Source: Candidatus Amesbacteria bacterium GW2011_GWC2_45_19 (GTDB lineage Bacteria > Patescibacteriota > Microgenomatia > CAZETR01 > Amesbacteraceae). Taken from it: a stretch of DNA of 64,000 nucleotides. Both the position numbers and the translations under genes were made by a program. Each line of letters starts with the position of its first letter. The stretch's first letter is position 1. The DNA lies in the NCBI GenBank assembly GCA_001001555.1, contig LCKS01000004.1:36130-100129 (forward strand), in the 5' to 3' direction. The notes under the pieces are model-generated. The model had not been told where the DNA came from. It made no database searches and was given only the letters and a program-made list of their open reading frames with translations. Positions 4,345 to 61,201 of the stretch are shown here, one piece after another.

Positions 4345-4833
4345 TTAACGGGTTTTAGATTTCCAGTCAAGGCGCTTGCGAAAAATTCCCTCTGTATAGC
4401 CTCCTTCTTTGATAAATTTCTCTTCCAGAGACCTTATCTGTCTATCTAAAAGATAGTTGGTTCTTCTAATAAGGTTGGCCGAATAATTAAGAGGGATAAA
4501 TGGGTTAAGATTGTCCCGTTTACCCCCCTTATCCCACTTGGGTAAAATTGTCAGTTCTCGGGTTCGGGCAAAGTCTTCATAATCTTTAAGCAGTTCTTCG
4601 TTAGACCCCCTGGTTACTCCTAAAAGTTTAATATAACCCTTGAGGCTTTTTTGGAGGTAGCCCTCAACAATACACTGCTTGCTAGATCTGGCGGCTTGAA
4701 CCATCTGTTCTCTGGTTCGTAGATATTCCCTTCCGGAAAGAAACCTGTCGCAAAATTGAATAGTCAGATCGTAGACTTCTATCGAGTTTTGGTAAGTGAT
4801 TAGATACTCGTATCCAGGTTTTGATCCAGCCAT
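4345..4833 (-). CDS. four-helix-bundle protein (Avd / 23S rRNA IVS-like family) with C-terminal extension
   Basis: YQNSIEVYDLTIQF...QMVQAARSSKQCIVEGY...LLGVTRGSNEELLKDY resembles the TIGR02436 pattern (RAA.S...NIAEG ... ArGS..EL). Confidence 0.5.
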   Translation of the reverse strand: MAGSKPGYEYLITYQNSIEVYDLTIQFCDRFLSGREYLRTREQMVQAARSSKQCIVEGYLQKSLKGYIKLLGVTRGSNEELLKDYEDFARTRELTILPKWDKGGKRDNLNPFIPLNYSANLIRRTNYLLDRQIRSLEEKFIKEGGYTEGIFRKRLDWKSKTR

Positions 4834-5156
4834 CCTTGTAATATTATAGTTGCAGACGCCGCGTGTTCCAAATTGCGTCGTTTGGACTTAGTAGTATGCA
4901 ATAGGAATCGACGGGCGTCGTGAGAAGAAAGAGTCTCGTCAACTTTATGCACAATTGCTAACTCCGACAATTTGTCTAAAAAACTTTCCGGACAATCCCC
5001 CACTACAATACCATCTATATTATGTTTACTAATCAGCAATTTAATTGACTGAAGTGCTTTGATGGTCTTAACTGTGGCCAGCGGTTCAGTCAACGGCCCA
5101 ATAGCCAACGCCACTCCCACTCTCGCCGCTCCATAATCAATTCCCAAATAGTTCAT
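4800..5156 (-). CDS. ruvX: Holliday junction resolvase-like YqgF/RuvX
   Basis: MNYLGIDYGAARVGVALA N-terminus, about 118 aa. Confidence 0.75.
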   Translation of the reverse strand: MNYLGIDYGAARVGVALAIGPLTEPLATVKTIKALQSIKLLISKHNIDGIVVGDCPESFLDKLSELAIVHKVDETLSSHDARRFLLHTTKSKRRNLEHAASATIILQGWLDQNLDTSI

Positions 5157-16934: not shown

Positions 16935-17564
16935 TCAAAATAAACTGGCTTGACTGGGAGTATTATCCTCTATTTTGGCTTGGGGCGCCAGCAGATTTTT
17001 TAATTTAACAAAGTCGGCTTTAAAAGCGTTCATCATGGTGGTACCACGCAGGGCGGCGGCCGGGTGATACATAGGAAATATGATTAGTTGATAGTTCATG
17101 GTTGATGGTTGATAGTAGCGGGCAACGCCGTGGATTTGGGAAATGGTGACGCCGGGGATGAATTTGGTCATACTGAAACGGCCCAATGTAACAATAATCT
17201 TGGGAGAAATAATTTTTATCTGCCGGTCCAGCCAATCGGCGCAGGCGGCAATTTCGTTATCAAACGGGTCGCGGTTGTCCGGAGGCCGGAATTTAACAAT
17301 ATTGGTAATATACACATCCCCGCGCTTTAGGCCTAAAACTTCCAGTAGAGTTTTCTCCAACAACATCCCGGCTTGACCGACAAAAGGGCGGCCCTGCATA
17401 TCCTCGTTATACCCCGGCGATTCGCCGATAAACATAATGGCCGCGTCAGGATCACCCTCTCCGGGTACAGCGTGCGTAGCATTTTTAGCAATATCCAAGC
17501 CCTTAAAGGCTTTTATTTCCCGGGCAATTTTCTCCAGCTCTTGCTTTTTTTGATCCGTAGTCAT
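16935..17564 (-). CDS. uracil-DNA glycosylase family 4
   Basis: GEGDPDAAIMFIGESPG and GRPFVGQAG motifs. Confidence 0.8.
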   Translation of the reverse strand: MTTDQKKQELEKIAREIKAFKGLDIAKNATHAVPGEGDPDAAIMFIGESPGYNEDMQGRPFVGQAGMLLEKTLLEVLGLKRGDVYITNIVKFRPPDNRDPFDNEIAACADWLDRQIKIISPKIIVTLGRFSMTKFIPGVTISQIHGVARYYQPSTMNYQLIIFPMYHPAAALRGTTMMNAFKADFVKLKNLLAPQAKIEDNTPSQASLF

Positions 17565-17586
17565 CTCTCAATAACTCCCTCTCATT

Positions 17587-17610
17587 CTCCCTCTTAATCT
17601 AAGAGGGAGA
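17587..17610. repeat. palindromic hairpin TCTCCCTCTTA-atc-TAAGAGGGAGA overlapping the last codons and stop of the phosphoesterase gene (related to the CCCCCTCCTAA hairpin family)
   Basis: Perfect 10-bp stem; the minus strand reads ...SLLD* through it. Confidence 0.5.
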
Positions 17611-18100
17611 CGCTAGTATAACTGCTAGATAAGGTGTCATAAATTCCAAAAGATGCGGGAGCTAGTTTGCCGGAAATGATGCCGCAGATGGAGCCGGGGT
17701 TGGCAAGCAAAGTTTTGCCTACTTGCTCTTGATAGGCTTTGTGGGTGTGACCGTGGAAAACCGCGTCATAATCTCCCGTTCCGGCCAAAAGTTTGCCGAG
17801 TTTGGGATAATGACAGAAGGCGATTTTTTTACTTTCCAATTCTACTTCGGCAAATTCTTTGGTTAGAGGCCAAAGCTGGACAGCTTTTAATTTTTCGGAA
17901 ATGGCAAATTGATCCTCATCATTATTCCCAAAACAAGCATAAATTGGTAAGGCTGATTCGGCTAAAATTACAGCCGTAAATGGAGCGCAAAAGTCTCCGC
18001 AAAAAATTATGACCTCGCATTTTTGCTCTTTGATTATTTGAATCGCCTTCCGCAGGTTCCAAATATGATCGTGGGTATCTGATAAAACTGCTATTTTCAT
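17594..18100 (-). CDS. metallophosphoesterase (YfcE/MJ0936 family)
   Basis: MKIAVLSDTHD...GDF...GNND...GHTH motif set. Confidence 0.75.
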   Translation of the reverse strand: MKIAVLSDTHDHIWNLRKAIQIIKEQKCEVIIFCGDFCAPFTAVILAESALPIYACFGNNDEDQFAISEKLKAVQLWPLTKEFAEVELESKKIAFCHYPKLGKLLAGTGDYDAVFHGHTHKAYQEQVGKTLLANPGSICGIISGKLAPASFGIYDTLSSSYTSVSLLD

Positions 18101-22671: not shown

Positions 22672-23421
22672 TTAGGAAACGGTGGTGCCGGAAAAGACTT
22701 TGGGGGTGTACCAATCGGGAGACGGGTTAGTTGGTTCTTGGTTATTGGTTATCTGCGAGTTACTTGGTTCTGGAGTGAAGCCGTCGTGGCGGCGGGCACC
22801 CTGGCGCATAAGAACTGCGGCGATTTCAAAAGTATCGGCCGTGACATTAGCCGTAAAATTGGAGGTAGATTTTTCCAGTCCGGCTAAGAGATTAGAGGCG
22901 GCATCATTAGAAATAGGGAGCTTGAGAGTTTCGAGAAGGCGGGTGACTTCCTCGGATCCAGCCAGAGAAAAGTGTTTGGTTTGAGCAAAAACTTCCGGAA
23001 CTTCCGCTCCGGCCACCAGAATGATCAGATCGGCCTGGGCGCCGCCAGAGATGAAATTTAATTTGCGGTGGTCAAGACCGGGGGTGTTGGGTTTGGGAGT
23101 GATAACTAAATTCAGCTCCCCCCTATCATCTAAATGATAACTGACTTTATCCACAATTTCCGTCTGGCCGGGAAAGGTGATCACCAGGTTGCGGCTGCCA
23201 AAGTTAGAAATGACCGTATCTGCTCCCACTAAGCGGTGAAATTCCACGGTCATGGGATCGGCACAGGTCACAGAGGCGGGTTTGCCGAACTGATCCAGGG
23301 AGAGTTTGAGAGCCAGGGCGGCGGCCACGGCATCATAGCCAGGGTTTTGGGGAAGAAGAATGGCTACCGAACGGGCAGAATCCAGCAGGCCCTTAAATTG
23401 ATTGGTATCAACTGGCGCCAT
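22672..23421 (-). CDS. DHH-family (NrnA-like) domain protein with degenerate catalytic motifs
   Basis: Occupies the nrnA-like slot between infB and rpsO; AILLPQNPGYDAVAAALAL resembles DHH motif I but lacks the Asp residues and the DHH triad. Confidence 0.35.
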   Translation of the reverse strand: MAPVDTNQFKGLLDSARSVAILLPQNPGYDAVAAALALKLSLDQFGKPASVTCADPMTVEFHRLVGADTVISNFGSRNLVITFPGQTEIVDKVSYHLDDRGELNLVITPKPNTPGLDHRKLNFISGGAQADLIILVAGAEVPEVFAQTKHFSLAGSEEVTRLLETLKLPISNDAASNLLAGLEKSTSNFTANVTADTFEIAAVLMRQGARRHDGFTPEPSNSQITNNQEPTNPSPDWYTPKVFSGTTVS

Positions 23422-24796
23422 GGATAGTGACGGCTATTATAATATCACCGGTCTTGAAGTCAACTGGCGGAGAAAAAACGGCCCCGAATTCCTGGCCGGT
23501 TTTAATTTTTTCAACTTCGGCTTTGCCAATTTTAAGAGATTTTATTTTGGTAATTTTGTCACCGATTTTGATCGAGTTGGTTTTGAGTATTTCTCCTTCG
23601 GTGCATTTACCCCCGGCCACCCGTAGATTGTCTATTTTGAACCCGGCCAGAATCTGGGCCCGGCCGGTAATGGTTTCGGTCTCTTGAGGATGGACTAATT
23701 TTTCTATGGCATCTAAAAGCTCATAAATAACATTAAAAGAGTGGATTTTAACTTTGTCTATTTCGGCTAGTTTGGCGGTGGAGCCGGGAATTTTGACATT
23801 AAAAGCAATTATTTGAGAATTTGTGGAAGTGGCAAAAAGAATGTCAGATTCGGTAACTTCGCCAGTAGCTGACGAAATTAGATTGACTTCCGGGGGTAAC
23901 AAAGAAGTAATGGCCTCAAGAGAACCGAGAGTGTCGGCTTTGAGGATAATTTTGACTATATCACCCTCTCCCTTCGGCCTGCCTGCCGGCAAGGCAGGGT
24001 TTCCCCCTCTTAAATTAAGAGGGGGAACGAAAGGGGGTGATATTTTAGTGATAGCAGAACTTAGTACAGACCCTACAGGGACGACGGAAGTGAGGCCGAG
24101 AATTTCGACGGGGGTAGAAGGCAGAGCAGGATTGACAGACAGGGCCTTGGCTTTACCGACCAATTTGTCTGAAAATAGCTCCTGGCCAACTTTTAAAGTA
24201 CCGTTTTTGACGATGCACATAGCCAAAGGGCCGCGGCGGGTATCCAAGTGAGATTCAAGAACAATACACTCTAGAGAGCCGGAAGGGTCGGAGACTGGAG
24301 GTTGGAGGCTAGAAACTAGATGGACCATCTCCAAAAGTTCAGGCAAGCCCTGGCCGGTTTTGGCAGAAACGGGAATGGCAGGTACGTCACCTCCAAACCC
24401 TTCGACTAAAACTGCGTTTTCAACCAATTGGGATTTGACGGTGTCTGCGGAGGCCCCGGGAAGGTCCATTTTATTAATAGCCACAATCATGGGAATACCG
24501 GCTGATTTAATGGTGGCTATAGATTCTTTGGTCTGGGGCATGACCCCGTCTACGGCGGAAATTACCAAAATAGCAATGTCGGCAATATCAGCTCCCCGGC
24601 TGCGCATTTGAGAAAAAGCAGCGTGTCCCGGCGTGTCGATGAAAGTGATACCGTTCGTCTGGAAAGCGTGAGTGCTTTGGGTTATACCCCCGACTTCACG
24701 AGAGGCGATGTTGGTTTTACACAGAGCATCAAGAAGAAAAGTTTTGCCATGATCTACATGGCCCAAAATGACAACGATAGGTGGTCTGGTTTGCAT
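23408..24796 (-). CDS. infB: translation initiation factor IF-2 (short form starting at the G domain)
   Basis: [28 protein letters not shown] GTPase motifs; 462 aa. Confidence 0.85.
   Translation of the reverse strand: MQTRPPIVVILGHVDHGKTFLLDALCKTNIASREVGGITQSTHAFQTNGITFIDTPGHAAFSQMRSRGADIADIAILVISAVDGVMPQTKESIATIKSAGIPMIVAINKMDLPGASADTVKSQLVENAVLVEGFGGDVPAIPVSAKTGQGLPELLEMVHLVSSLQPPVSDPSGSLECIVLESHLDTRRGPLAMCIVKNGTLKVGQELFSDKLVGKAKALSVNPALPSTPVEILGLTSVVPVGSVLSSAITKISPPFVPPLNLRGGNPALPAGRPKGEGDIVKIILKADTLGSLEAITSLLPPEVNLISSATGEVTESDILFATSTNSQIIAFNVKIPGSTAKLAEIDKVKIHSFNVIYELLDAIEKLVHPQETETITGRAQILAGFKIDNLRVAGGKCTEGEILKTNSIKIGDKITKIKSLKIGKAEVEKIKTGQEFGAVFSPPVDFKTGDIIIAVTIHGAS
23939..24022. mobile_element. 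RPE-like nested palindromic element (TIR TATCACCC/GGGTGATA; inner hairpin CCCCCTCTTAA-tt-TAAGAGGGGG plus CCTGCC-GGCAA-GGCAGG) inserted in-frame within infB
   Basis: About 84 bp (28 codons). Translated within IF2 as ...VPPLNLRGGNPALPAGRPKGEGDIV. A homologous element lies in grpE. Confidence 0.55.
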
Positions 24797-25801: not shown

Positions 25802-25841
25802 TATACCACCCCCACCCTCCCCCTCCTAATCTAGGAGGGGG
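25802..25841. repeat. left inverted repeat TATACCACCCCCACCCTCCCCCTCCTAATCTAGGAGGGGG (contains hairpin CCCCCTCCTAA-tc-TAGGAGGGGG)
   Basis: Inverted partner at 27011..27048; the hairpin overlaps the DUF559 stop (..LTPS*). Confidence 0.6.
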
Positions 25842-26190
25842 TAAGTTCCTTTCTAATCTGGTCCACTACTTTGTCTAAATTGGACTGAACTTCCCAATTC
25901 CAAAATCTAATAACTTTGATGTTAAAAGCCCCTAGATATCTGGTTCTATACGAATCATATTTATAATTTTGCTTGTGTTGCTCGCCATCGAGTTCTATGG
26001 CAAGTTTTTTCTCCGGACAGTAAAAGTCCAAAATATAAAATGTTACACTGTGCTGTCGGCGAAACTTAAAGCCGAGGCGGCTATTTTTCAACTTGCTCCA
26101 AAGCAACCTTTCTTCTCTAGTGCCATAGTTTCTTGACCTCCTTCGTTTTTGTTTGAGTTTAGGAGTATTAAAAATAAATTCTTTTCTCAT
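25831..26190 (-). CDS. DUF559 (Vsr/restriction-endonuclease-like fold) domain protein
   Basis: YILDFYCPEKKLAIELDGEQH core motif; AT-rich. Confidence 0.7.
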   Translation of the reverse strand: MRKEFIFNTPKLKQKRRRSRNYGTREERLLWSKLKNSRLGFKFRRQHSVTFYILDFYCPEKKLAIELDGEQHKQNYKYDSYRTRYLGAFNIKVIRFWNWEVQSNLDKVVDQIRKELTPS

Positions 26191-26260: not shown

Positions 26261-27022
26261 ATGGTCAGTCGTTTGTATTCCGCTATATATTTATTGGAAA
26301 AATTATCTAATTTGGGGGCCATGAAGGTTAATATGCAGTATTTAACGAAAGGTGGCCCGGAATTAAATCACTTTATCGATCGTCAGGCACACCCTGCTAG
26401 AAATGAATATCTTGATATATGCAACCTTAAAAGATTTGTTGAGAGTGGCGAATATGTGATCTCAAATAAATATGTATGTATTTCGACTACATTTGAAACT
26501 TCCGATGTCAAATATAAGGCTTTTATTGGTCTTGATGTGGAGATCGGCGATGAGAAAGTAGTGTTTAATGTTGCCAAGTTTCTCGCACATAAATTAGGTA
26601 AATCGATTGATGTATTTAAAACAACGCGCGGTTTCCACTTTTTTATTCCTGATTTGGTATTTTCTGGTGATTTTGAGTACTTAACGAAAATATTTGAAAT
26701 TGCGAACGATGCTTCTTTGCGGATTGGAGACAAGTGGGTCGCAGGATATTTTGACTGTGTAAAAAAAGCAAAAACTTATAAAGATTTACAACAAATTTCG
26801 CGAGAAATATTAAACAATTTCGGACACTATCAAGCCAGAGGAAAATACACCTTCTTTGACTTAAGACATATCGCTCATGGCATGTTCGAATATGAACGTC
26901 AGCGGGGTATTTCTGATCAGAATAATGGTGTTAGAACACAATTGTTTTTTAGAATAACATCCAAGAACCACAACGATCATCCTCCGGTGTTTATAAAACA
27001 GTTTATTTATTCCCCCTCCTAA
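26261..27022 (+). CDS. hypothetical protein, possible archaeo-eukaryotic primase-polymerase (PrimPol/AEP) domain
   Basis: IGLDVEIGDE (motif I DxE), then about 28 aa later TTRGFHFFIP (motif II sxGxH), then an acidic motif III candidate; AT-rich; start may be an internal Met. Confidence 0.35.
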   Translation: MVSRLYSAIYLLEKLSNLGAMKVNMQYLTKGGPELNHFIDRQAHPARNEYLDICNLKRFVESGEYVISNKYVCISTTFETSDVKYKAFIGLDVEIGDEKVVFNVAKFLAHKLGKSIDVFKTTRGFHFFIPDLVFSGDFEYLTKIFEIANDASLRIGDKWVAGYFDCVKKAKTYKDLQQISREILNNFGHYQARGKYTFFDLRHIAHGMFEYERQRGISDQNNGVRTQLFFRITSKNHNDHPPVFIKQFIYSPS

Positions 27023-27048
27023 GTTAGGAGGGGGACGAGGGGGTGGTA
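27011..27048. repeat. right inverted repeat (hairpin CCCCCTCCTAA-gtt-AGGAGGGGG, spacer ACGA, then GGGGGTGGTA)
   Basis: Its reverse complement TACCACCCCCTCGTCCCCCTCCTAACTTAGGAGGGGG matches the left repeat at 25802; the hairpin supplies the ...SPS* stop of the 253-aa ORF. Confidence 0.6.
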
Positions 27049-27115
27049 CTAGAGAATGTCTGCTAATTCTTCCAGTAAACGTCTTTGTTCGTGGGAAAGA
27101 TGGGCGGGGAGATCG
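27049..27115 (-). pseudogene. remnant of dnaJ 3' end (diverged duplicate)
   Basis: Minus-strand translation VEHFYIDLPAHLSHEQRRLLEELADIL* versus DnaJ C-terminus DFYIRLIIDFPTHLSHRQKQILEEFERS*. Confidence 0.55.
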
Positions 27116-27221
27116 ATGTAGAAATGTTCCACCTAAGAGATGGAACTGCCTAACTATATTAAGCTAGGCGGTCTAATTGTTTATTGACATCTGGTCTTAC
27201 CCTTGTTAACATTAGTTTACA

Positions 27222-27827
27222 ATGGAACAGGGTGATGCGGGTGTTGCTGTTCCCGAAAAGGAAGCGGCCGATGAGACGTTAAGGCCTGTTGTTGACAGGT
27301 TGCTCCTTGACACGCATTTTCGGGAAGTTCCCCTCCCAGATAACTTTGATGGTTGGACTGGCGAAGATCTAAGGAAGCGCCCCAATGAATCTCTGAAGAG
27401 AATGCTTACCCAGGAGGCGGTTGGGGAAGTTCAACAGGCTTTGGGACTAAGTTTTGAATCTAAGTTTAGTGGTCACACTGGTCGCCCATTACCGAAGGCG
27501 GAGACAAAACAAGCTGTTCCTGATTATGAAAGTTGGTCTGCAAGACTAGAGGCTTTAAGAGGAGAAATGGGCGAGAAAGTAAATGAGGCGGAAGCACGAG
27601 GCGTGAGTGTTCCAAGATTTGACGCTGAAACGGGACAGCCCCTGCCCAAAAACTCATTAAGAGTTTATGAGGCCGTGCATGGCAGACGTCAGCCTCAAGA
27701 GGCACCTCCGTCTATGTCTGATCAAGAGGCTCTTGAAATGGGTCTTAGTGCCTTGAGGGAAATGAAGGCCATAAGGCGTGAAGACGAAGCTGCTAGGAAA
27801 TCCGGAGGACTACTGCCCAGATCGTGA
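27222..27827 (+). CDS. hypothetical acidic protein
   Basis: 201 aa, no recognisable motif; higher GC than the neighbouring cassette. Confidence 0.4.
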   Translation: MEQGDAGVAVPEKEAADETLRPVVDRLLLDTHFREVPLPDNFDGWTGEDLRKRPNESLKRMLTQEAVGEVQQALGLSFESKFSGHTGRPLPKAETKQAVPDYESWSARLEALRGEMGEKVNEAEARGVSVPRFDAETGQPLPKNSLRVYEAVHGRRQPQEAPPSMSDQEALEMGLSALREMKAIRREDEAARKSGGLLPRS

Positions 27828-27849
27828 GACGGTAATTTGGGTTACCAAC

Positions 27850-29262
27850 ATGTCAGAAACTACAACCTCAGAGGTTATGGTGCCAAAACAAGCTGCTGAA
27901 CTGGGATTAGAGTTGGTTTACACGGACGAAAGTTCGCACCCCCCATTTAACGTATTACCCAAAGCGTCTATCGGAATACAGAAAAACGGCGAGAAAGCAG
28001 AATTAATAAAAGTTAGCCCGGAACACGGGCGGGCGACGGCAGATGCCAGGCTATTGTCAACAGTCGTGTGGCGTGACGATTTTGGTATACCTTTTGGGTC
28101 GGTGGATTATAAGGGGAACGTCGTGGATGATGTGGTTATTGATACGGATCAAACCGATAAATTAAGGGTGTGTGGAATTAAAACAGGAAAGGTCACCAGA
28201 AGAATTATTGCGGCCTCTCGGGCCTTGAGAGGAATGGGGTTACCAACTGAGGCCATTTACAGGATGTATAAAATTACCTGGTTTCCCGAAAACGGTCGGC
28301 GGATAAGTCCAGAAGAATGGAGAAAACAACTACTAACAGAGCTTGAATCAGATATCGAATTTGCCAGAGAACAGCTGAGGAATCCCTCAACTTACGGCCA
28401 GAAAAAGGATGAACTAGAGGAGCTTTTGGCAAAAGCTGAAGAAGAGGTCAAATTTGTAAAAGGTTATTTGAAGCAGAATGACAATTTCTATGTTTTTGAA
28501 AGGCATCTACAAACACCGATTAGATTACGAGATATCCCGCACGCCAAGACCAAAAATGACTTTGAAAATCTGGCTAAGCAGAGCATGGAGTGGCTTGACA
28601 AAATTCTAACCAGGAGACAACGAGCGAAAACTCCGGTCTGGAATAAGTTGTTACGTAAATCTAAAGACTTATGTTTTGCGCTTTGGCCCTTTTCAGGAGA
28701 CGAAAAATTTGATTTTAATAACTCGGATCATTTATCTCGAGTGTTTGTTGAGTGGCTACCTGCTCAAATGGGACAATACTTAGCGAGGCTACATAAAAAT
28801 GGCTTGATTCATGGTTTTCCCCACTCACAAAACTGGTCCTTGGGAAGTCTTTACGACTTAGACAGTGTGTATGGCCCTGCGTTGGGAGATAACCCGAGAA
28901 CCGAAGATAATTTTGTAAAGGATGTAGAGATTGCGGCAAGAGCCGTCATGGATATCTTTGCTGTACGGGCCCCAGGTTTTGACTGTGTGGGATTGACGGC
29001 AAGTCACTATCTGGCTCAGACGATTCTTGGGCAAAACAAAGATGAACTGCCTTTGGTAAAAGCTGTAGCTAACTTTGAATACGGCTACTTGGAGGCAAGA
29101 TTTAGGAAAAAGCTGACTCCTGCGAATGTTGATGGGTATGTCAGGAGGTATATGCCCCAAGTAAAGGTCGGCGGAGACGTTGTGAGAAGTTGGGCTGCCG
29201 TAAATGAGAGAATTATTAATTTGATTAAGTCTAAACTTTTGGTCTTGCGGGAGACGGGGTGA
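27850..29262 (+). CDS. hypothetical large protein (weak kinase-like HG..H..N / DLD signature, central coiled coil)
   Basis: Probable start at MSETTT after the upstream stop (the track start 27778 overlaps the previous gene); LARLHKNGLIHGFPHSQNWSLGSLYDLDSVYG. Confidence 0.45.
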   Translation: MSETTTSEVMVPKQAAELGLELVYTDESSHPPFNVLPKASIGIQKNGEKAELIKVSPEHGRATADARLLSTVVWRDDFGIPFGSVDYKGNVVDDVVIDTDQTDKLRVCGIKTGKVTRRIIAASRALRGMGLPTEAIYRMYKITWFPENGRRISPEEWRKQLLTELESDIEFAREQLRNPSTYGQKKDELEELLAKAEEEVKFVKGYLKQNDNFYVFERHLQTPIRLRDIPHAKTKNDFENLAKQSMEWLDKILTRRQRAKTPVWNKLLRKSKDLCFALWPFSGDEKFDFNNSDHLSRVFVEWLPAQMGQYLARLHKNGLIHGFPHSQNWSLGSLYDLDSVYGPALGDNPRTEDNFVKDVEIAARAVMDIFAVRAPGFDCVGLTASHYLAQTILGQNKDELPLVKAVANFEYGYLEARFRKKLTPANVDGYVRRYMPQVKVGGDVVRSWAAVNERIINLIKSKLLVLRETG

Positions 29263-29265
29263 TAT

Positions 29266-30096
29266 TTAAGATCTTTCAAACTCTTCCAGTATTTGTTTTT
29301 GGCGGTGGGAGAGGTGGGTGGGGAAATCGATGATGAGACGGATATAGAAATCGCCGCGGTTGGCTACTCCACGGCCGGCCAGGCGAACCATGGTACCGGG
29401 TTGGGTGCCGGGGCGGATTTTAAGCTTTAAGTCCGCGTCTAAGGTAGGGACACTTGTGGTCCCTCCGAGAATAGCCAGGGTGAAAGGAATTTTGTGGTCT
29501 ATATAGATGTCTGCCCCATCGCGGCGGAAAATTAGATCCGGCTCAACTTCAAAAGTAATATCAAAATCGGTAAAACGCAGATGAGTACCGGTATCAGCGC
29601 CGGCGGGAATTTTAATAGCGTGGGTCCGGCCGTCAATGGTGACGCTTTCGGTACCGCCTGAAACTGCCGTTTTAAAAGGAATGCGCAAAGAATAATGAGG
29701 CTTGGCAGGCCGGCTGCGGCCAAAGGGCGAAGCGCCGCCAAAAAATTGTTCAAATATTTCAAAAGGATCGCCCATGTCCCCGAAAGGATTTTGTCCGCCT
29801 CCAGAAGTTGAATAGTAATATTGGAAAGGGCCTTGCTGTTGCCCGGCAAAGCCGGATCCGCCGGAAAAACCACCGGGCGGAGTGTGGCCGAATTGGTCAT
29901 AAGTTTGCTTCTTTTGAGAGTCGGAAAGAACTTGATAAGCCTCGTTTATTTCTTTGAACTTCTCTTCGGCTTCGGGAGACTTATTTTTGTCCGGGTGCCA
30001 CTGCATGGCCATTTTGCGGTAGGCAGATTTGATCTGGGCATCGGAAGCGCCTTTAGAAACACCTAAAATATCATAATAATCACGCTTAGCGGCCAT
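29266..30096 (-). CDS. dnaJ: DnaJ-like co-chaperone (J domain + G/F region + C-terminal domain, no zinc finger)
   Basis: DYYDILGV...HPDKN J domain with HPD; 276 aa. Confidence 0.8.
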   Translation of the reverse strand: MAAKRDYYDILGVSKGASDAQIKSAYRKMAMQWHPDKNKSPEAEEKFKEINEAYQVLSDSQKKQTYDQFGHTPPGGFSGGSGFAGQQQGPFQYYYSTSGGGQNPFGDMGDPFEIFEQFFGGASPFGRSRPAKPHYSLRIPFKTAVSGGTESVTIDGRTHAIKIPAGADTGTHLRFTDFDITFEVEPDLIFRRDGADIYIDHKIPFTLAILGGTTSVPTLDADLKLKIRPGTQPGTMVRLAGRGVANRGDFYIRLIIDFPTHLSHRQKQILEEFERS

Positions 30097-47592: not shown

Positions 47593-49466
47593 TTTACTAC
47601 TTCCCCTTCCTCGGCTTTTTTGGCGTCGGCTGGTTTTTCTTCCGCGGGTTTTTCTTCTGTGGGAGGTGGGGTTTGCTTATACATTTCGGCCCCTAATTTT
47701 TGCAAAGAATCCATGAGGTCTTTGGATTTGGCTTCCAGATCTTCTTTGGTGCCGGATTCGAGAATATCTTTGAGAGCTTTTACTTTATCTTCTACCTCGG
47801 TTTTAAGTTCAGCCGGGGCTTTGTCGCCGGCATCTTTGAGAGTTTTTTCGGCGGTAAAAATTAAAGAATCTGCCTGGTTTTTGGATTCGATCTTGGTTTT
47901 CTTTTCGGCGTCTTCGGCGGCGTGGGCTTCGGCTTCTTTGCGCATTCTTTCCACTTCTTTTTCATCGAGGTTTGTGGAGTTGGTAATGGAAATGTGCTGC
48001 ATTTTGCTCGTAGCTTTGTCGAGGGCTTTGACATTAAGAATACCGGAGGCGTCAATATCGAAAGTAACTTCGATCTGGGGCACGCCACGGGGGGCAGGAG
48101 GAATACCATCCAGAATAAAGCGGCCGAGAGTTTTGTTATCCGCGGCCATGGGGCGTTCGCCCTGAAGGACGTGGATTTCGACGGAGGTCTGAGAATCAGC
48201 GGCGGTGGAAAAAACTTGAGATTTAGAAGTGGGAATAGTGGTATTCCTCTCTATAAGAGGGGTCATGACCGATCCGAGAGTCTCCAGCCCCAGGGTCAAA
48301 GGGGTGACGTCCAAAAGAACTACATCTTTGACATCGCCTGTGAGAACGCCGCCCTGAATGGCGGCGCCGACGGCCACCACTTCGTCGGGATTGACAGACT
48401 TGTTAGGCTCTTTGCCAAAGAATTTCTTGACCACTTCAATAACAGCCGGCATGCGGGTCATCCCGCCGACCAGGACCACTTCGTTAATTTTAGAAGTATC
48501 GATTTTGGCGTCCTTAAGACAGGCTTTAACTGGAGCAACGGTTTTTTGAATTAGGGAATCCACTAAAGCTTCTAATTTGGCCCGGGTGAGTTTGAGATTT
48601 AAATGCAGGGGTTGGCCGTTATTCTGAGTAATATACGGCTGATTGATCTCTGTTTCCATGGCCGAAGACAGTTCGATTTTGGCTTTCTCGGCGGCGTCGC
48701 GGACGCGCTGCAGAGCTTGGGTGTCTTTTTTAAGGTCCACACCGTTATCTTTCTTGAACTCCGAAACTATCCAATCCATAATTACCTGGTCAAAATCGTC
48801 TCCCCCTAAGTGGGTGTCGCCGTTGGTGGCTTTGACTTCAAAAACGCCGTCGCCCAGTTCGAGGACGGAAATGTCAAAAGTACCGCCACCCAGATCATAG
48901 ACGGCCACGGTGTGGGCATTTTTCTTGTCCAGACCGTAAGCCAGGGCCGCGGCGGTGGGTTCATTAATTATTCTTTCGACTTTCAGGCCGGCGATTTCCC
49001 CGGCTTGCTTGGTAGCTTGGCGCTGGGAGTCATCAAAATAAGCTGGGACGGTAATCACGGCCCGGTCGACGGTGCCACCCAGGTAAGACTCGGCGTGGGC
49101 TTTCATGATTTGCAGAATCTTGGCGGAGATTTCCTGGGGAGTGTAAGTCTTACCTTCGACCTCGACGCAAGCCATATTGTCTTTGCCGGCCACGATTTTG
49201 TAGGGCACCATTTCCATGGTGCGCTTGACTTCGGGGTCGGAAAACTTGCGGCCCATCAAACGTTTGATGGAGTAGATAGTGTTTTTGGAATTTAAGATCA
49301 TCTGGCGTTTGGCGACTTCGCCCACCAGATTTTTGACCGGTTCCACAATAGAGGGGGTGGTGTTGCGGCCGGTGTCCGCAGCGGGGATAACCTTGGGAGT
49401 CCCCCCCTCCATAACGGCCACACAGCTATTAGTGGTCCCCAAATCAATTCCGATTATCTTTGACAT
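47589..49466 (-). CDS. dnaK: molecular chaperone DnaK (Hsp70)
   Basis: [22 protein letters not shown], Hsp70 signatures; 625 aa. Confidence 0.95.
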
Positions 49467-49962
49467 ATGCTTTTATTTTAGCGGGTCTAATAACATAATT
49501 GTTAATTTTATAACCTTTAGTGACTATTTCTGCAATAGTATTATCGGGCTCTCCCGGCAAAGTTTCAAGACATTCGTGTATCTCGTGATTATATGAATCG
49601 CCTATTTTGGGAGAAATTTCCTGCAGACCTTCGGCTGTCAAGACGTCTCGAAATTGCTTAACGGCCATTTGCACCCCCTGATCTTGGGAGTGGATGGCGG
49701 CCAACTCCAAAACGTCTAGAGTGGGCAGAAGTTTGGCCATAATATTAGCCGTGGCGTAAGTGACAAAGTCTTTTTTGTCAGCGTCAACACGTTTAACCAG
49801 ATTATGATAATCAGCTAAGGCCCGTTTCCAGTTTTCTGTAAGGGTTTTAACCGTATCACCCTCGGCCTGCGGGCCACCCCCTCTTAAATCGAGCCTTGGG
49901 CTCGCGTCTGACGCCGTAAGAGGGGGATGGGGGGTGATATTGGGTGATTTTTTAGTCTTCAT
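49444..49962 (-). CDS. grpE: nucleotide exchange factor GrpE (N-terminal region carries in-frame palindromic element)
   Basis: [18 protein letters not shown]...; sits between hrcA and dnaK. Confidence 0.8.
49854..49939. mobile_element. RPE-like nested palindromic element (TIR TATCACCC/GGGTGATA, inner hairpin CCCCCTCTTA..TAAGAGGGGG) within grpE coding sequence
   Basis: Translated as ...[27 protein letters not shown]; homologous to the infB copy at 23939. Confidence 0.55.
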
Positions 49963-53347: not shown

Positions 53348-55111
53348 TCAATTTACTTTCAAAATCGACAGGAAGGCTTCCTGAGGGAGGTCGATTTTAC
53401 CCACACGTTTCATGCGGGCTTTGCCTTTTTTTTGTTTTTTGAGGAGCTTGTCCTTGCGGGTTTGGTCTCCCCCGGAAAGTTTGGCGATGACGTCTTTGCG
53501 GTAGGCTTTGACGTCGGCCCGGGCCAGAATACGACTGCCGATGGCGGCCTGGATGGGCACCTCAAAGTTTTGCCTAGGAATAATATTTTGCAGGGTATCG
53601 ACTAAACTTTTAGCCAAATACCGGGCTTGGGCGCTGGGGATGATTTGAGACAGGGCCTCTATTTTTTCGCCGGCGACGAGAACGTCTAGTTTAGCCAGAT
53701 CTGCTGCCTGATAACCAGCCAGTTCATAATCCAGAGTGGCAAAGCCCTGGGAAACGCTTTTGAGAGAATCGTAAAAGCCGCGGATCAGCCCGGCCAGGGG
53801 CAGAGAGTAGGACAACTGGACTAAACGAGCCAGGTATTGAATATGGGTTTGAGTACCGCGATGATTCTGGCACAGCCGGATGACCGGACCGATGTATTCT
53901 TGAGGAACAAAAATTGAGAGATTTAACATAGGTTCGCGAATTTCTTTGATGATTGACGGGTCGGGGAAGGCGGAGGCCTGGTTGATAGTTATTAGTTCAT
54001 GGTTCATGGTTAGTATTTGATAGGAAACCGAGGGGGCAGCGGCGATAACATCCAGACTAAACTCACGCTCCAGTCTTTCCTGGACGATGTCGGCGTGAAG
54101 CAGGCCCAAAAAGCCGACGCGAAAACCGTTACCCAGGGCCGGAGAAAATTCCGGAGTAAAAGTGAAAGCTGAATCGGATAGCTGAAGTTTGTCCAGAGCG
54201 CCGCGCAGGATATTTATTTCGGATCCCTCGGTGGGGTAAAAACTGATGAAAACCACGGGTTTTATTAGTTTGTAGCCAGGGAGTGAAACAGCGTTTAAAG
54301 AAGATGAAAGCGTGTCGCCAACAGTAAGAAGAGATAGATCTTTAAGGTTGGTGACAACGTAACCCACCTCTCCGGCTGATAACTTGGGAGAGGGGGTACG
54401 CTGGGGGGTAAAATAACCAACCTCAATAGCTGTGGTTGGGGCGCGGGTGCCTAGCAAAAAGAGTTTGTCGTGTGCTCTAATTTCGCCATCGACAAGCCTG
54501 ACCCAGGCAACCACTCCTAAGTGGGGGTCGAAATTACTATTGAATACCAAGGCCCGGGTGGGCCCGCCTTCGCTAGAGCTACGGCGAGGCGAGGGAATAC
54601 GATGGATGATAGTAGTGAGGAGTTCGGGGACGCCGGCGCCGGTTTTGGCCGAGACCAGTAATGGAGATTCCAAATTTAATATTTCTTTAAGCTGTTTTTC
54701 AGCGCCGGCGATATCCGCGGTAGTAATATCGATTTTATTAATGACGGGGATAATGGTTAGGCCTAACTTTTTGGCTTGGTGATAGTGGGCCAGGGTTTGG
54801 GCCTGAACGCCCTGGGTAGCGTCGACAAGTAAAATCGCTCCTTCGCATGCGGCCAGGGAGCGGCTGACTTCGTAGGAAAAATCTACATGACCCGGGGTAT
54901 CTATCAGGTTCAGAATATAATTCTGGTACTCCATCCGCACCGGTGCCAATTTAATCGTGATCCCCCGCTCTCTTTCGATAGGGTTGCTGTCTAAAAGTTG
55001 GGCCCGCATTTGCCGCTTGGGGACAGTGCCGGTGATTTCCAGCAACCGGTCGGCCAAGGTAGATTTACCATGGTCAACATGAGCAATAATGGCAAAATTG
55101 TGGATATTCAT
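53348..55111 (-). CDS. lepA: elongation factor 4 (LepA)
   Basis: Start at MNIHNFAIIAHVDHGKSTLADRLL (the track N-extension is probably spurious); its ATG overlaps the murJ stop. Confidence 0.85.
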   Translation of the reverse strand: MNIHNFAIIAHVDHGKSTLADRLLEITGTVPKRQMRAQLLDSNPIERERGITIKLAPVRMEYQNYILNLIDTPGHVDFSYEVSRSLAACEGAILLVDATQGVQAQTLAHYHQAKKLGLTIIPVINKIDITTADIAGAEKQLKEILNLESPLLVSAKTGAGVPELLTTIIHRIPSPRRSSSEGGPTRALVFNSNFDPHLGVVAWVRLVDGEIRAHDKLFLLGTRAPTTAIEVGYFTPQRTPSPKLSAGEVGYVVTNLKDLSLLTVGDTLSSSLNAVSLPGYKLIKPVVFISFYPTEGSEINILRGALDKLQLSDSAFTFTPEFSPALGNGFRVGFLGLLHADIVQERLEREFSLDVIAAAPSVSYQILTMNHELITINQASAFPDPSIIKEIREPMLNLSIFVPQEYIGPVIRLCQNHRGTQTHIQYLARLVQLSYSLPLAGLIRGFYDSLKSVSQGFATLDYELAGYQAADLAKLDVLVAGEKIEALSQIIPSAQARYLAKSLVDTLQNIIPRQNFEVPIQAAIGSRILARADVKAYRKDVIAKLSGGDQTRKDKLLKKQKKGKARMKRVGKIDLPQEAFLSILKVN

Positions 55112-58124: not shown

Positions 58125-58305
58125 CCGTGATATTGTGATGGTACTAGTTATGACTTTGATTACGCTGACCGCGTGGGTGGGATTTGAAGTTTACCGGGCT
58201 TATACCCGAGTAAATATTTCTCCTGTCCCAGATAAGCAACTGCTAAAGTTATCTCCCACGCTGGACATCCCCGTGCTGGAAAAATTAGAAAGCAGGACCC
58301 CGTGA
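58105..58305 (+). CDS. small single-TM protein
   Basis: 66 aa, TM MVLVMTLITLTAWVGF. Confidence 0.35.
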   Translation: MRKNKIDRDIVMVLVMTLITLTAWVGFEVYRAYTRVNISPVPDKQLLKLSPTLDIPVLEKLESRTP

Positions 58306-59561
58306 GAAAAAGAGAGCTGACCATTCCTACAATCTTGGGGGTTCTGGCCATAATTGGGGGACTGGTAGGGGGGATGGTGTTATTGAACAAACCGTTACGG
58401 AATTTGGTGGGAGCTAGTCCGGAGGAAACTCCGAAAGAAGTCAAAATTACTAATATTTCCGACACAAATTTTGTAGTCAGCTGGGTGACAGACAAATCTA
58501 CTTCCGGTTATATCCAATATAATGGAGAATTGGTGGTATCCGACGACCGGGATCAGGAAAGGGGCGAAATTGGCAACTATTTTACCCATTTGGTAACGGT
58601 CAGGGGGCTGAAACCGGCTACCAAGTATAGCTTTAAAATCGGGTCCGGGGGAGATTTATACGAGGTGACGACAGCCATGACGGCGGGACAACCTCCGGCA
58701 GCAGACGTGGCATATGGACAAGTGGTGACGGCCAGCGGCGATCCGGTAGAAGGAGCTATTGTGTATTTATTGATGCCGGGAGCGGTGACCCAAGCCGCCA
58801 TGACCAAGCCCTCTGGATCGTGGGTTATTCCCGTATCTGCCGCCCGCAGCGCAGATTTAACCAGCTTCGCAGCTTACGACCGGGAAAAAGAACGGGTAGA
58901 AATTGTGGTCCAGGTGGGAATGTTGGGAACGGCGACAATAAATACGACGGCTGGAGCGACTAAACCAGTGGCAGAGATTGCTTTAGGAAAATCCAGGAAT
59001 GAGCCAGAGCCAACTACCGGATCAAAATTTCCGGCTATGGACGTGGAGAAAGAATTGGTAATTTTGACGCCCAAGTCGGGAGAGAGAGTAAATTCCCCAA
59101 AGCCGGAAATTATGGGCAGAGCTCCGGCAGGAAGCCAAGTTACCATTAAAGTGGAATCGTCCAAATTATTTACCGAGACTTTAACCGCCAGTGAAAACGG
59201 GGAATGGACGTATAGTGTTCCTGAAAACTTGGAACCCGGAGAGCATACGGTGACGGTGACGTCGATCATTGACAGTGTAACTAAAACGATCAAGAAGAAT
59301 TTTGTGGTGGAAGCGGCGGGCGTTTCTAACGCGCCAGCCAGAGTGGCTACTCCGTCTGCAACCCTAAAACCGACTCCTACGCCAACGCCGACTCCAACAC
59401 CTACTCCGACGCCAACGCCTACAATTGCTCCCAGAGTCGCTTATCCGTCCACGGAATCCGGCATTCCCGTATCTGGAAATTTGATTCCGACTTTAATTTT
59501 ACTCATACTGGGAACAGGATTAATTGTAGCCGGATATACTGGCTACAATTACAAATTCTGA
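58302..59561 (+). CDS. cell-surface protein: signal-anchor, FN3-like domain, Ig-like region, (PT)n linker, C-terminal TM anchor
   Basis: ITNISDTNFVVSWVTDKSTSGYIQYNGE FN3-like; [16 protein letters not shown]; C-terminal LIPTLILLILGTGLIVAGY. Confidence 0.5.
   Translation: MRKRELTIPTILGVLAIIGGLVGGMVLLNKPLRNLVGASPEETPKEVKITNISDTNFVVSWVTDKSTSGYIQYNGELVVSDDRDQERGEIGNYFTHLVTVRGLKPATKYSFKIGSGGDLYEVTTAMTAGQPPAADVAYGQVVTASGDPVEGAIVYLLMPGAVTQAAMTKPSGSWVIPVSAARSADLTSFAAYDREKERVEIVVQVGMLGTATINTTAGATKPVAEIALGKSRNEPEPTTGSKFPAMDVEKELVILTPKSGERVNSPKPEIMGRAPAGSQVTIKVESSKLFTETLTASENGEWTYSVPENLEPGEHTVTVTSIIDSVTKTIKKNFVVEAAGVSNAPARVATPSATLKPTPTPTPTPTPTPTPTPTIAPRVAYPSTESGIPVSGNLIPTLILLILGTGLIVAGYTGYNYKF
59377..59427 (+). 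repeat. tandem PT-encoding dinucleotide-codon repeats within surface protein gene
   Basis: ccgactcctacgccaacgccgactccaacacctactccgacgccaacgcct. Confidence 0.6.
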
Positions 59562-59675
59562 TTTCTAATTTCTAAATCCTAAATAAATTTCAATGTCAAA
59601 ATCTAAAAAGTTTAAACAATTGGAATTTAGATATTATTTAGAGTTTAGATATTAGAATTTAGAGTTTTTTAAAGT

Positions 59676-60614
59676 ATGGATTCTGTCCAAGACCTAAAAA
59701 TAATTATGCCGGGTACGGAGGAGACAACTCCCGTACCGCCTCCGCCCCCACCCACTCCGGTGATTGAACCCCCGACAACTTCAACGCCGGCTCCGGCCAG
59801 TGACAGCGCGCAAGTTATAAAGCCCCGGAAAAAATGGGGTACGGGAGTGCTAATTGGCAGCGCGACCGCATTGATGGTCTTAGTCGTGGGGCTGGGTTTT
59901 GGTATATGGCAAGTCAAGCAAAATCAAAAAATAAAACCGTCGCTAGCAGCTAATTGTCGTTGTATAACTCCAGGAAGTTCTTGTTATGGAGACAGAATTC
60001 CTAATGGTAGTTGTCCACTCGACGCAAATGGCCAAGGTCAGGCTTGTTGTGACAAGGTGGGTGATGACGAAGACGAGAACGGCGATGATAGTGCTAGGCA
60101 CTATATTACATTTACGTGCGATAGGTGTGCCAGCGATAGAAGGTGTCAAACACCTGATATAGGAACTAATCCGCGCTATTCGACGGGGGCGGCTCCCGGA
60201 GCGTGCGCTCAAGTAGATAGTTGTGAGTCACCCGGAAATAGTAATTGTAGAGTAGTATCGTTGTGTGCAGAATCGTGCAGTGGCCCCACCCCAACGCCAA
60301 GGCCAACACCTACTCCCGCCCCAACGCCACCTCCAACGAGTTCGATGTGTCAGAGGATAGATATTTTGAGAAATGGGGTAGTGATTGCTCAAAATCAAAT
60401 TCAAGTTGGAGACCAAGTTGTATTTAGAGGTTTTGCCAGCGCGGTAAATACGACGGTGACGGCTATTAATTTTGCTGTTTCTCAAAACGGAGTCGTTACT
60501 AGTTATGCAGGAACTGGTTTACAGTTGGTGGGTGGGTTATGGCAAGCAGACTCCCCGACTATTACTATAGTTGCCGCTAGTTATTCGGTGACGGCGACAC
60601 CAATATATCCATGA
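59676..60614 (+). CDS. Cys-rich secreted/membrane-anchored protein with Pro/Thr linkers
   Basis: N-terminal Pro-rich region plus TM, at least 16 Cys in the central region, [17 protein letters not shown] linker. Confidence 0.5.
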
Positions 60615-61201
60615 ATTTAGATACGCAGCCAAAAATAAATGTCATTGGGCCGAAAAAGGGGTTGGATTGGCCCAGATTTCCAAAAATAAGTCCAACTTGG
60701 GTGGTGGCGGCAACAGTGGTGTTGGCAATAATATCGGTGATTTCGGCGGTGCTTTTGTATCAAAGAAGGCAGGAGTCGGTGGCGCCGACAGCAGGAATTC
60801 CTAGCCAGGCGGCAGTGGGTACATCTTGTACAATTGCATTTAATGTAACTGCTTCTCCCACTCCGACGCCATCTCCATCGTCTACACCCACACCGTCACC
60901 CACGCCAACGGGAACCCCGGATCCCACCCCAACCCCCACCACTACACCAACCCCCACACCTACTCCATCGCCATCCCCATTCCCCACCCCGACGCCAACG
61001 GGCACTCCACAACCTACTCCCACCCCGACGCCAATTGTGAGCGGGCCGACGCCTACCTCAACGCCGGTGACTATTGTGAGCGGGCCGACGCCCACTCCGG
61101 TAGAATTGGCAAAGGCGGGCGATGTAACCGGAACCTGGACCATCTCAATTGCCGGTATACTGCTTTTGGGCTTGGGAAGCTTACTAATGTTAGCGTTTTG
61201 A
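60611..61201 (+). CDS. PT-rich surface protein with N- and C-terminal TM anchors
   Basis: About 80 aa of PT/PS repeats; tandem 40-bp repeat IVSGPTPT; C-terminus [31 protein letters not shown]. Confidence 0.5.

Follow-up and report, generated by a model that had tools for sequence, protein, structure and literature searches.

In-frame coding palindromes have so far been regarded as peculiar to Rickettsia apart from scattered cases elsewhere. The Rickettsia palindromic elements (RPEs; Ogata et al. 2000) are portrayed in PMC10969869 and PMC3184786 as short palindromic repeats that occur both between genes and in frame within unrelated housekeeping genes. The same kind of behavior is seen here in an 84-bp sequence inside infB, the gene for translation initiation factor IF2, on a 64,000-nt stretch of contig LCKS01000004.1 of Candidatus Amesbacteria bacterium GW2011_GWC2_45_19 (hereafter the window). 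This sequence is most likely a repeat element that is tolerated in frame in the linker of IF2. It behaves as an RPE or a MITE (miniature inverted-repeat transposable element), yet apparently belongs to an undescribed family present in many phyla.

Like the RPEs, the element is predicted to add a translated peptide to the protein at places that the fold can accommodate, and no transposase is known for either. The Amesbacteria-type element differs in being shorter (about 50–85 bp, compared to about 105–150 bp for RPEs), in its GC-richness and perfect C5/G5 stems, in its occurrence in several phyla rather than a single genus, and in its tie to a nuclease gene family. The likeness to RPEs proposed in an earlier sequence-only reading of the window holds for the behavior, but probably does not extend to membership of the family. 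RPE-domain protein models exist as TIGRFAM/NCBIfam entries. The element peptide with its flanks matched no NCBIfam family at E values up to 10, in a release that may lack the RPE-domain models, and full-length IF2 and GrpE matched only IF-2, GTPase and GrpE models among their best 25 matches. The bacterial MITEs and repeats fused to open reading frames (ORFs), such as ERIC, BOX/RUP, BRE and the Anabaena MITEs (PMC10969869, PMC3184786), share with the present family the inverted terminal arms, a large excess of non-coding copies over the protein-encoding form, and the occasional in-frame extension or interruption of an ORF or provision of its stop codon. Here, however, the copies come with no DDE transposase partner and no proven target duplication, and the candidate partner is instead a PD-(D/E)xK nuclease of about 120 amino acids, whose start and stop codons form part of the element.

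The infB element spans positions 23959–24042 of the window, 20 nt downstream of the range originally assigned to it (23939–24022). On the plus strand it begins with the arm TATCACCC (23959–23966) and ends with the opposite arm GGGTGATA (24035–24042); these are the terminal inverted repeats that had been described, and both of the internal hairpins reported along with them lie in between. Hairpin 1, the core of the family, is a perfect 10-bp palindrome, CCCCCTCTTA-AAT-TAAGAGGGGG (CCCCCTCTTAAATTAAGAGGGGG in full), that closes on a 3-nt loop and reads PPLNLRGG. Hairpin 2 is part of a 21-nt in-frame module (ALPAGRP), which the otherwise near-identical copies in L001 and L003 lack (L-numbers denote the loci or contigs compared, P-numbers homologous proteins), and a small CC-TTC-GG turn separates it from the left arm on the plus strand. 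The reading frame runs through the element with no stop and, as had been claimed, no frameshift, and its predicted product is ...K-ISPPFVPPLNLRGGNPALPAGRPKGEGDI-VK; an example of a predicted IF2 peptide that bridges the element is ISPPFVPPLNLR. Folding is very stable: the RNA of the 103-nt region reaches –51.2 kcal/mol (z = –6.4), and the DNA of the element region –30.3 kcal/mol (z = –7.2), and in neither case was any of 200 shuffles as good. In Rfam 15, the window has no match at the gathering threshold, and permissive thresholds yield only sub-threshold generic hairpin or miRNA noise.

Where does the additional peptide fall in IF2? The window protein, which is of the short form typed as that of the candidate phyla radiation (CPR), has Pfam matches to GTP_EFTU (residues 7–159), EF-G_D2 (176–247) and IF-2 (277–365), the last of which starts only at profile position 23. 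The IF2 of T. thermophilus (3J4J) aligns to window residues 3–244 and 279–455, and in this comparison the element peptide stands in for the linker that joins domains G3 and C1. In an AlphaFold2 model made from alignment A1 (mean pLDDT, the predicted local distance difference test score, 83.5), residues 251–278 are modelled as coil and constitute the sole internal segment with a pLDDT below 50. The peptide is thus predicted to form a disordered linker leading from domain II to C1. The protein itself is identical to P0001 of an independent ENA assembly, and its relatives carry the names Amesbacteria, Gottesmanbacteria and Microgenomates. A second variable insertion point is found in the G domain (columns 56–87 of alignment A1, near window residue 47), where P0019 has GEFQISNFTRGAREPSRFQ, P0025 has NLPADATHQALQAGRTP and the window protein has TNG; the inserts of P0019 and P0025 may be other small inserted elements.

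The homologous element that had been claimed in grpE is present, and the nucleotide similarity between the two copies is significant. Plain local alignment failed to span the 27-nt loop module of the grpE copy, and a cheap-gap alignment was used, which scored 68.2, compared to 15.4 ± 3.0 for shuffled sequences (maximum 28.7 in 2000; z about 18). Among 2542 window segments, the grpE copy is also the top non-self match to the infB element. It carries a GGCC-nGCA-GGCC mini-hairpin as well, and it lies in the N-terminal tail of a protein whose Pfam GrpE match begins at residue 37. An identical GrpE (P0121) occurs in 28 contigs from several sources, one of them annotated as Candidatus Amesbacteria bacterium GW2011_GWB1_47_26.

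Comparison with relatives identifies the infB segment as an indel, in agreement with the sequence-only reading. IF2 homologues are all about 445–470 residues long, and the linker between domains II and C1 is hypervariable. The linker DNA of L004 and L006 has no palindrome, L001 (P0002; 79% amino acid identity) has the same element minus hairpin 2, L003 (P0003) has an element with a 27-nt module in the loop of hairpin 1 (TAQDASRRLDV), as in the grpE copy, and L005 (P0004) has a member of a different subfamily, CCCTCTCCTA-AAG-TAGGAGAGGG, at the same site. L007 (about 60% amino acid identity) carries a minimal form of 53 bp, whose arms are the same and whose 23-nt hairpin is identical. All length differences among these forms are multiples of 3 nt. 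Between the window and L007, the flanking coding DNA is 57–62% identical, and only 31–40% at third codon positions, while the hairpin is identical at 23 of 23 positions. Vertical inheritance alone would not produce such a pattern, which points to a recent gain, exchange between copies, or a strong constraint at the DNA level. The situation in grpE is similar: the nearest GrpE homologues, whose 88% identity refers to an aligned stretch without the element-bearing N-terminus, start with MAAKTTTKTL... and lack the element, P0122 carries it in plain form, and other modules occupy the loop in P0134 and P0138. Judging from these sequences, the segment is an indel in both infB and grpE, and not conserved protein. 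The checks proposed with the sequence-only reading all turned out in its favor.

Turnover extends beyond these two genes. A near-identical TATCACC element is found upstream of rplC in L005, and the orthologous spacer in the window has none. The dnaJ–nusA spacer is empty in L004, has the right-end scars of two subfamilies in L006, and holds a unit with a gene of the DUF559 family in the window, L005 and L007. Presence/absence polymorphism is seen at five orthologous sites: the infB linker, the grpE N-terminus, the rplC upstream region, the dnaJ–nusA spacer and site 2 of leucyl-tRNA synthetase (LeuRS), which is filled in L042 and empty in L110. At the filled/empty junctions compared (rplC upstream, dnaJ–nusA spacer and infB linker), no target-site duplication can be read, and all of the junctions carry extra differences. 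In the window, the DUF559 unit is adjoined by a duplicate, about 70 nt long, of the 3' end of dnaJ (Table 1), and the dnaJ–nusA interval looks like a nested insertion at a hot spot. About 2.1 kb separate the duplicate from the true dnaJ, with two ORFs that match no family.

How widespread is the family? The exact pattern CCCCCTCYTA-NNN-TARGAGGGGG was found in 29 viral contigs and at least 120 genome contigs, with hosts that include Nitrospirota, Geobacteraceae/Desulfuromonadales, Dehalococcoidia, Pseudomonadota and many Patescibacteria. The suggestion that this lineage might have a family equivalent to the RPEs was therefore right in that a repeat family exists, but the family is not specific to the lineage. 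Literature searches by motif, peptide and keyword found no description of it. In three IMG/VR contigs (L008, L023 and L032), the same hairpin occurs in frame inside large ORFs that by their appearance resemble phage portal proteins, and in other viral contigs it adjoins capsid-like genes; phages may carry and spread the family.

The family has a conserved architecture. A C-rich arm preceded by TA is followed by one or two 10-bp C5/G5 hairpins, which are perfect and close on 3-nt loops, and then by a G-rich arm with TA after it; extra mini-hairpin modules are sometimes added. Frequent additions are a second hairpin, CCTCCCCTTA-nnn-TAAGGGGAGG, or a GC mini-hairpin, and the CCTGCC..GGCAGG module of the infB copy and the GGCC-nGCA-GGCC module of the grpE copy recur in Nitrospirota copies (L056, L071). 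The left flank, TAAC(T/G)CCCCC, and the right flank, GGGGG(A/C)GTTA, are conserved even though they were outside the search pattern. In 42 non-redundant full elements from loci other than the window, both arms are of the TAAC.CCC/GGG.GTTA type in 36 and of the TATCACCC/GGGTGATA type in four, and two are mixed. Minor arm types include TATCACCCCC/GGGGGTGATA (in the window and in Saccharibacteria) and TACCACCCCC/GGGGGTGGTA; arms of the type TACCACCC/GGGTGGTA occur singly, and as a split pair in the window and L005. Full TAAC-type copies are mostly asymmetric, TAACTCCC...GGGCGTTA or the reverse complement (26, versus 8 that are fully paired), which amounts to a T.C or G.A mismatch conserved at position 5 of the arm. 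TA is found on both sides of every full copy, but may belong to the arms. Of 215 hairpins, 180 have perfect stems, and the remainder show no G.U bias in their mismatches, which points to a constraint on the DNA, or to a process that generates it, and not just to selection for RNA folding.

Roughly 30 of 181 hairpins lie within long open frames, and there they are nearly always read as PPLxLRGG, the hairpin's stop-free frame (CCC CCT CTT AAn nTn AAG AGG GGG). With some loops the reading SPSYLKRG is also available, and the remaining frames run into TAA. Hosts confirmed by Pfam include LeuRS (in two Saccharibacteria), transketolase (two copies), MurB, a Mur ligase (MurC), MutL, Fmt, PrmC, RuvB and a radical SAM protein, and the in-frame copies are almost always situated between Pfam domains. 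The conservation of the frame suggests that these copies, like those of infB and grpE, are translated. Two of the hosts have other unusual features. The LeuRS of a Saccharibacteria contig (L110, 630–3572) has a NUDIX domain (residues 415–531) inserted after the editing domain in addition to a palindromic element. The stop-to-stop MurB frame of an Uhrbacteria contig (L085, 3644–5317), which has two palindrome-encoded peptides, opens with a PD-(D/E)XK_3 nuclease domain (residues 11–118); the two may be fused, or the nuclease domain may belong to a preceding gene that shares the frame.

Only one small gene, DUF559, recurs directly beside copies of the element. Clustering of the neighbors of 180 copies brought out DUF559, phage portal and capsid proteins, and a large kinase-like family taken as background, and no transposase or integrase was found among these recurrent neighbors. 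In the window, the DUF559 gene lies 1.8 kb from infB and is a member of PF04480 (111.8 bits at a cut-off of 20.6; E = 1.9e-32), with PDB 3HRL as the nearest solved structure (E = 6.7e-31). Eighty DUF559 loci were picked from metagenomes on protein similarity alone. A family-type hairpin was found at ≤150 nt upstream of the DUF559 start in 64 of 76 loci and between –30 and +60 nt of the stop in 37 of 67, and hairpin density was 3.16 per kb near DUF559, compared to 0.37 per kb elsewhere in the same contigs and 0.08 per kb in the window. In the usual layout, a hairpin is followed by GGGGGAGTT, which runs directly into ATGAAA... and the rest of the DUF559 gene, whose stop is within a TAAC arm or a second hairpin. 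The abutment of the DUF559 start on the arm explains why half of all arms run on as ...TGA(A). The GTTATG at the element end is the DUF559 start in DUF559 units; that it might be a general gene start was rejected for solo copies, where the median ORF is 19 codons.

Two arrangements of these units occur. In the TAAC subfamily, whole two-hairpin elements flank the DUF559 ORF as direct repeats (L209, with 70 nt at 97% identity; L182; L234, with five copies). In the TATCACC and TACCACC subfamilies, the DUF559 ORF is placed between the hairpins, inside the inverted arms (L007, L201, L131, the window and L005). L007 combines, on a single contig, a DUF559 unit with an infB element whose arms are the same, and L094 has an internally deleted DUF559 remnant. 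Arrays were also noted. In a Desulfuromonadaceae contig (L060, 2700–4230), beside type I restriction genes, a unit of about 220 bp, made up of the 3' end of hsdS, an element with two hairpins and the initial bases of DUF559, is repeated four times in tandem and followed by an intact DUF559 gene, which suggests unequal recombination between elements. In L234 (174–1122), the five copies of a 106-nt two-hairpin element fall within about 950 bp, spaced by about 134 bp where adjacent; the DUF559 ORF fills one of the gaps, and no recombinase is in view.

The properties of DUF559 proteins are of interest in this context. DUF559 is among the gene families most enriched in predicted programmed inversions, in which genes are flanked by inverted repeats (odds ratio 14; PMC9881135), and the Vsr/DUF559/DUF2726 clade of PD-(D/E)xK nucleases has both a mismatch-specific nickase (Vsr) and a group I intron homing endonuclease (PMC3424549). 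The gene flanked by the palindromes belongs to this clade, which thus contains a selfish homing nuclease and a context-dependent mismatch nickase; any action on the present hairpins would be putative. The homing endonuclease is presumably that of PDB entry 3r3p. A literature search found no published tie of any DUF559 protein to repeat elements, and the only PADLOC match of DUF559 was a weak one, to a model for a methyl-directed restriction enzyme.

How, then, might such a sequence have come to reside in infB? The infB copy is most likely a non-autonomous member of a small nested-palindrome repeat family, residing, in the single stop-free frame of its hairpin, in the linker between domains II and C1, the sole stretch of IF2 to tolerate it. 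It would be transcribed and translated within IF2 to give a disordered Pro/Gly-rich tether and need have no function of its own, being selfish or neutral DNA that is retained since it is harmless. Copies turn over by gain, loss, and remodelling through nested in-frame modules or exchange between copies. Their survival in genes would then be a matter of filtering, with only open-frame copies in tolerant linkers persisting. The longer units (arm–hairpin–DUF559–hairpin–arm, or element–DUF559–element) may be the parent, autonomous form, and the short copies derivatives or relics; the arrangements described above suggest such a tie between DUF559 units and solo elements. The Vsr-like nuclease could nick the folded element, possibly at the conserved arm mismatch, and copying could be completed by host repair or recombination. 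A broader proposal, made tentatively and with rather less than even confidence, is that DUF559 is the enzyme of a previously unrecognised class of selfish elements across many phyla. The selfish unit would be a gene for a Vsr-like nuclease of about 120 residues with its start and stop embedded in nested C5/G5 palindromes; nicking would occur perhaps at the conserved T.C/G.A mismatch, and the palindromes would be copied as solo elements, also in frame into the linkers of essential proteins (IF2, GrpE, LeuRS, MurB/C, MutL, RuvB).

Several points weigh against this explanation. Movement of the element has not been observed, and for the infB copy neither a clean empty site nor a target-site duplication is demonstrable. 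The element-free IF2 linkers are only about 13 residues shorter and cannot be aligned with the window linker, so that the infB event looks like a replacement within a fast-evolving linker rather than a simple insertion. As regards the nuclease, DUF559-like sequence is found within 450 nt of only 14 of 180 hairpins, and in the DUF559 unit of the window the arms are TACCACC and the hairpins CCTA, as against TATCACC and CTTA in the infB and grpE copies. Upstream of nusA, the DUF559 gene is in synteny with that of relatives (55–89% identity) and looks vertically inherited. A PD-(D/E)xK nuclease alone cannot perform transposition, DUF559 is no known transposase, and the scan of about 45 window ORFs, which covered those outside the ribosomal-protein block at 36–47 kb, revealed no transposase, integrase or RAYT (the transposase associated with repetitive extragenic palindromes).

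Other types of mobile or recombining repeats have to be considered. The elements could be integron attC sites or relatives of these, with DUF559 as a cassette gene and the infB copy as a stray attC-like site. The attC R''/R' boxes have the consensus RYYYAAC/GTTRRRY. The common subfamily of other phyla ends in ...TAAC and GTTA..., which resembles these boxes, and it also has ORFs between direct copies, whose stop is in the TAAC arm and whose start follows GTTA immediately, small arrays (five copies in L234, six in L060), and a strand asymmetry created by the conserved arm mismatch. The window copies, however, have CAC/GTG (TATCACC...GGTGATA; TACCACC/GGTGGTA) in place of AAC/GTT, most loci have a single copy, scattered in housekeeping regions or within genes, and the stems are perfect, without extrahelical bases. 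Essentially DUF559 alone is bracketed, rather than a diversity of cassettes, and neither the scanned window ORFs nor the recurrent neighbors include a tyrosine recombinase or integrase. Membership in the integron attC class is accordingly unlikely. Repetitive extragenic palindromes (REPs) and the mosaic elements built of them (BIMEs), which are moved by RAYT (a Y1 enzyme), the hairpin ends of IS200/IS605 elements (PATEs), or the MITEs of DDE transposons that duplicate TA (IS630, for example) offer another model. They share with the present family the small, GC-rich and mostly extragenic palindromes, often at gene ends and sometimes clustered, and the imperfect outer stem, whose conserved mismatch suggests recognition of a single folded strand; TA on both sides of every full copy is compatible with TA duplication. 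On the other hand, TA can equally be attributed to the inverted arm, and no empty/filled pair settled the matter of duplication. GTAG or CGTC head tags are a feature described for REPs in PMC3733652, but the arms here start with TA(A/T/C)C..., and none of the copies listed has GTAG or CGTC at its ends. Copies are also often inside coding sequence, no RAYT is nearby, and no Y1 or DDE transposase was found among the recurrent neighbors of the 180 copies or in the window ORFs scanned. An origin of this kind appears improbable.

It is also conceivable, but doubtful, that the hairpins are functional signals (terminators, mRNA stability determinants or translational controls) conserved at DUF559 for its expression, and that the infB copy is regulatory in the nusA–infB operon or an adaptive linker. 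The fold is certainly very stable, many copies lie exactly at stop codons or just before start codons, and the G-rich arm GGGGGAG before the DUF559 ATG is similar to a ribosome-binding site. However, the infB and grpE copies are dispensable, since they are absent from close relatives, and a dozen unrelated genes use the same sequence to encode protein. The hairpins of the window copies at 17571–17611, 25804–25842 and 27010–27048 are not followed by a T-run, the predominance of perfect stems and the lack of G.U bias argue against selection on RNA only, and no Rfam family matches. Least credible, with hardly any probability, is that the infB segment is an ordinary fast-evolving low-complexity linker whose palindromy and likeness to grpE are coincidental or an assembly artefact. 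The linker is indeed hypervariable in the clade, and the net gain in length is small, but coincidence does not fit the z scores of about 18 for the grpE match and –6.4 for folding, nor the spread of the 23-mer and its arms over at least 120 genome and 29 viral contigs, and the identical IF2 in an independent assembly and the identical GrpE in 28 contigs argue against an artefact.

As a tolerated in-frame repeat, the infB element shows that the behavior of the RPEs is also found in a separate repeat family, present in several phyla and in viral contigs, and affecting essential proteins of translation, protein folding by chaperones, cell wall synthesis and repair. The family accounts for one class of odd PPLxLRGG-type insertions in candidate-phyla proteins, which can mislead alignments, domain models and phylogenies. 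The insertions also constitute a natural experiment on which linkers accept about 20–30 extra residues. The DUF559 family, in turn, gains a concrete, testable candidate function as the partner of these palindromes. If this is true, the units would represent a new nuclease-based mobile element that might yield a structure-specific nicking enzyme, and would provide DUF559 with a function and Patescibacteria and other groundwater bacteria with a recurrent source of Pro/Gly-rich insertions.

Besides the infB and grpE elements, three related copies lie in the window (Table 1). A generic detector of C-rich/G-rich hairpins found five in the window, versus 0–2 in shuffled sequences. The degenerate copy at the metallophosphoesterase gene provides the final codons and the stop of that ORF, and the two ends of the DUF559 unit form an inverted pair, 27010–27048 being 84% complementary to 25810–25841.

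Table 1. Members of the palindrome family and associated genes in the window (positions in the 64,000-nt stretch).
Feature	Position	Strand	Remarks
infB, host gene	23408..24796	-	IF2, 462 aa, short CPR form; identified by Pfam
infB element	23959..24042	-	84 bp; TA-flanked arms, two internal hairpins; codes for IF2 residues 252-279
Hairpin 2 of infB element	23978..23998	.	CCTGCC...GGCAGG; inside 21-nt in-frame module
Hairpin 1 of infB element	24003..24025	.	family core; perfect 10-bp palindrome
grpE	49444..49962	-	host gene of second full element
grpE element	49854..49939	-	second full element, in N-terminal tail; same arms and hairpin 1, 27-nt module nested in loop
Degenerate partial copy	17571..17611	+	ATAACTCCCTC arm and CTCCCTCTTA-ATC-TAAGAGGGAG
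Metallophosphoesterase ORF	17594..18100		ends in partial copy
DUF559 unit, one end	25804..25842	+	arm TACCACCCCC and hairpin CCCCCTCCTA-ATC-TAGGAGGGGG; DUF559 stop codon within hairpin
DUF559 gene	25831..26190	-	PF04480, Vsr-like PD-(D/E)xK endonuclease; bracketed by family hairpins
253-aa ORF	26261..27022	+	no family match; inside same hairpin-bounded unit; stop in hairpin 27012-27034
DUF559 unit, other end	27010..27048	+	hairpin CCCCCTCCTA-AGT-TAGGAGGGGG and arm GGGGGTGGTA
Duplicate of dnaJ 3' end	27049..27120		78% identical to 29279-29332
ORF	27222..27827	+	no family match
ORF	27778..29262	+	no family match
Isolated arm remnant	29256..29264	-	TATCACCCC; directly after dnaJ stop; same position as arm in L007
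dnaJ	29266..30096		true gene

Some other features of the window may be mentioned. Short repeats of the GTTGATAG/GTTCATGG type occur in two distant places, at 17083–17115 and 53977–54023. Long series of imperfect coding repeats rich in Pro and Thr (ACnCCn units) extend over 59343–61090 and run across the ORFs 58302–59561, 59676–60614 and 60611–61201, the first of which has fibronectin/Ig-like domains. Near the left end of the window, the ORF at 4345–4833 has a weak match to the 23S rRNA-intervening-sequence protein family and overlaps the end of the ORF at 4800–5156, which matches the RuvX profile in two stretches, the better of them to the C-terminal part only (profile positions 77–134).

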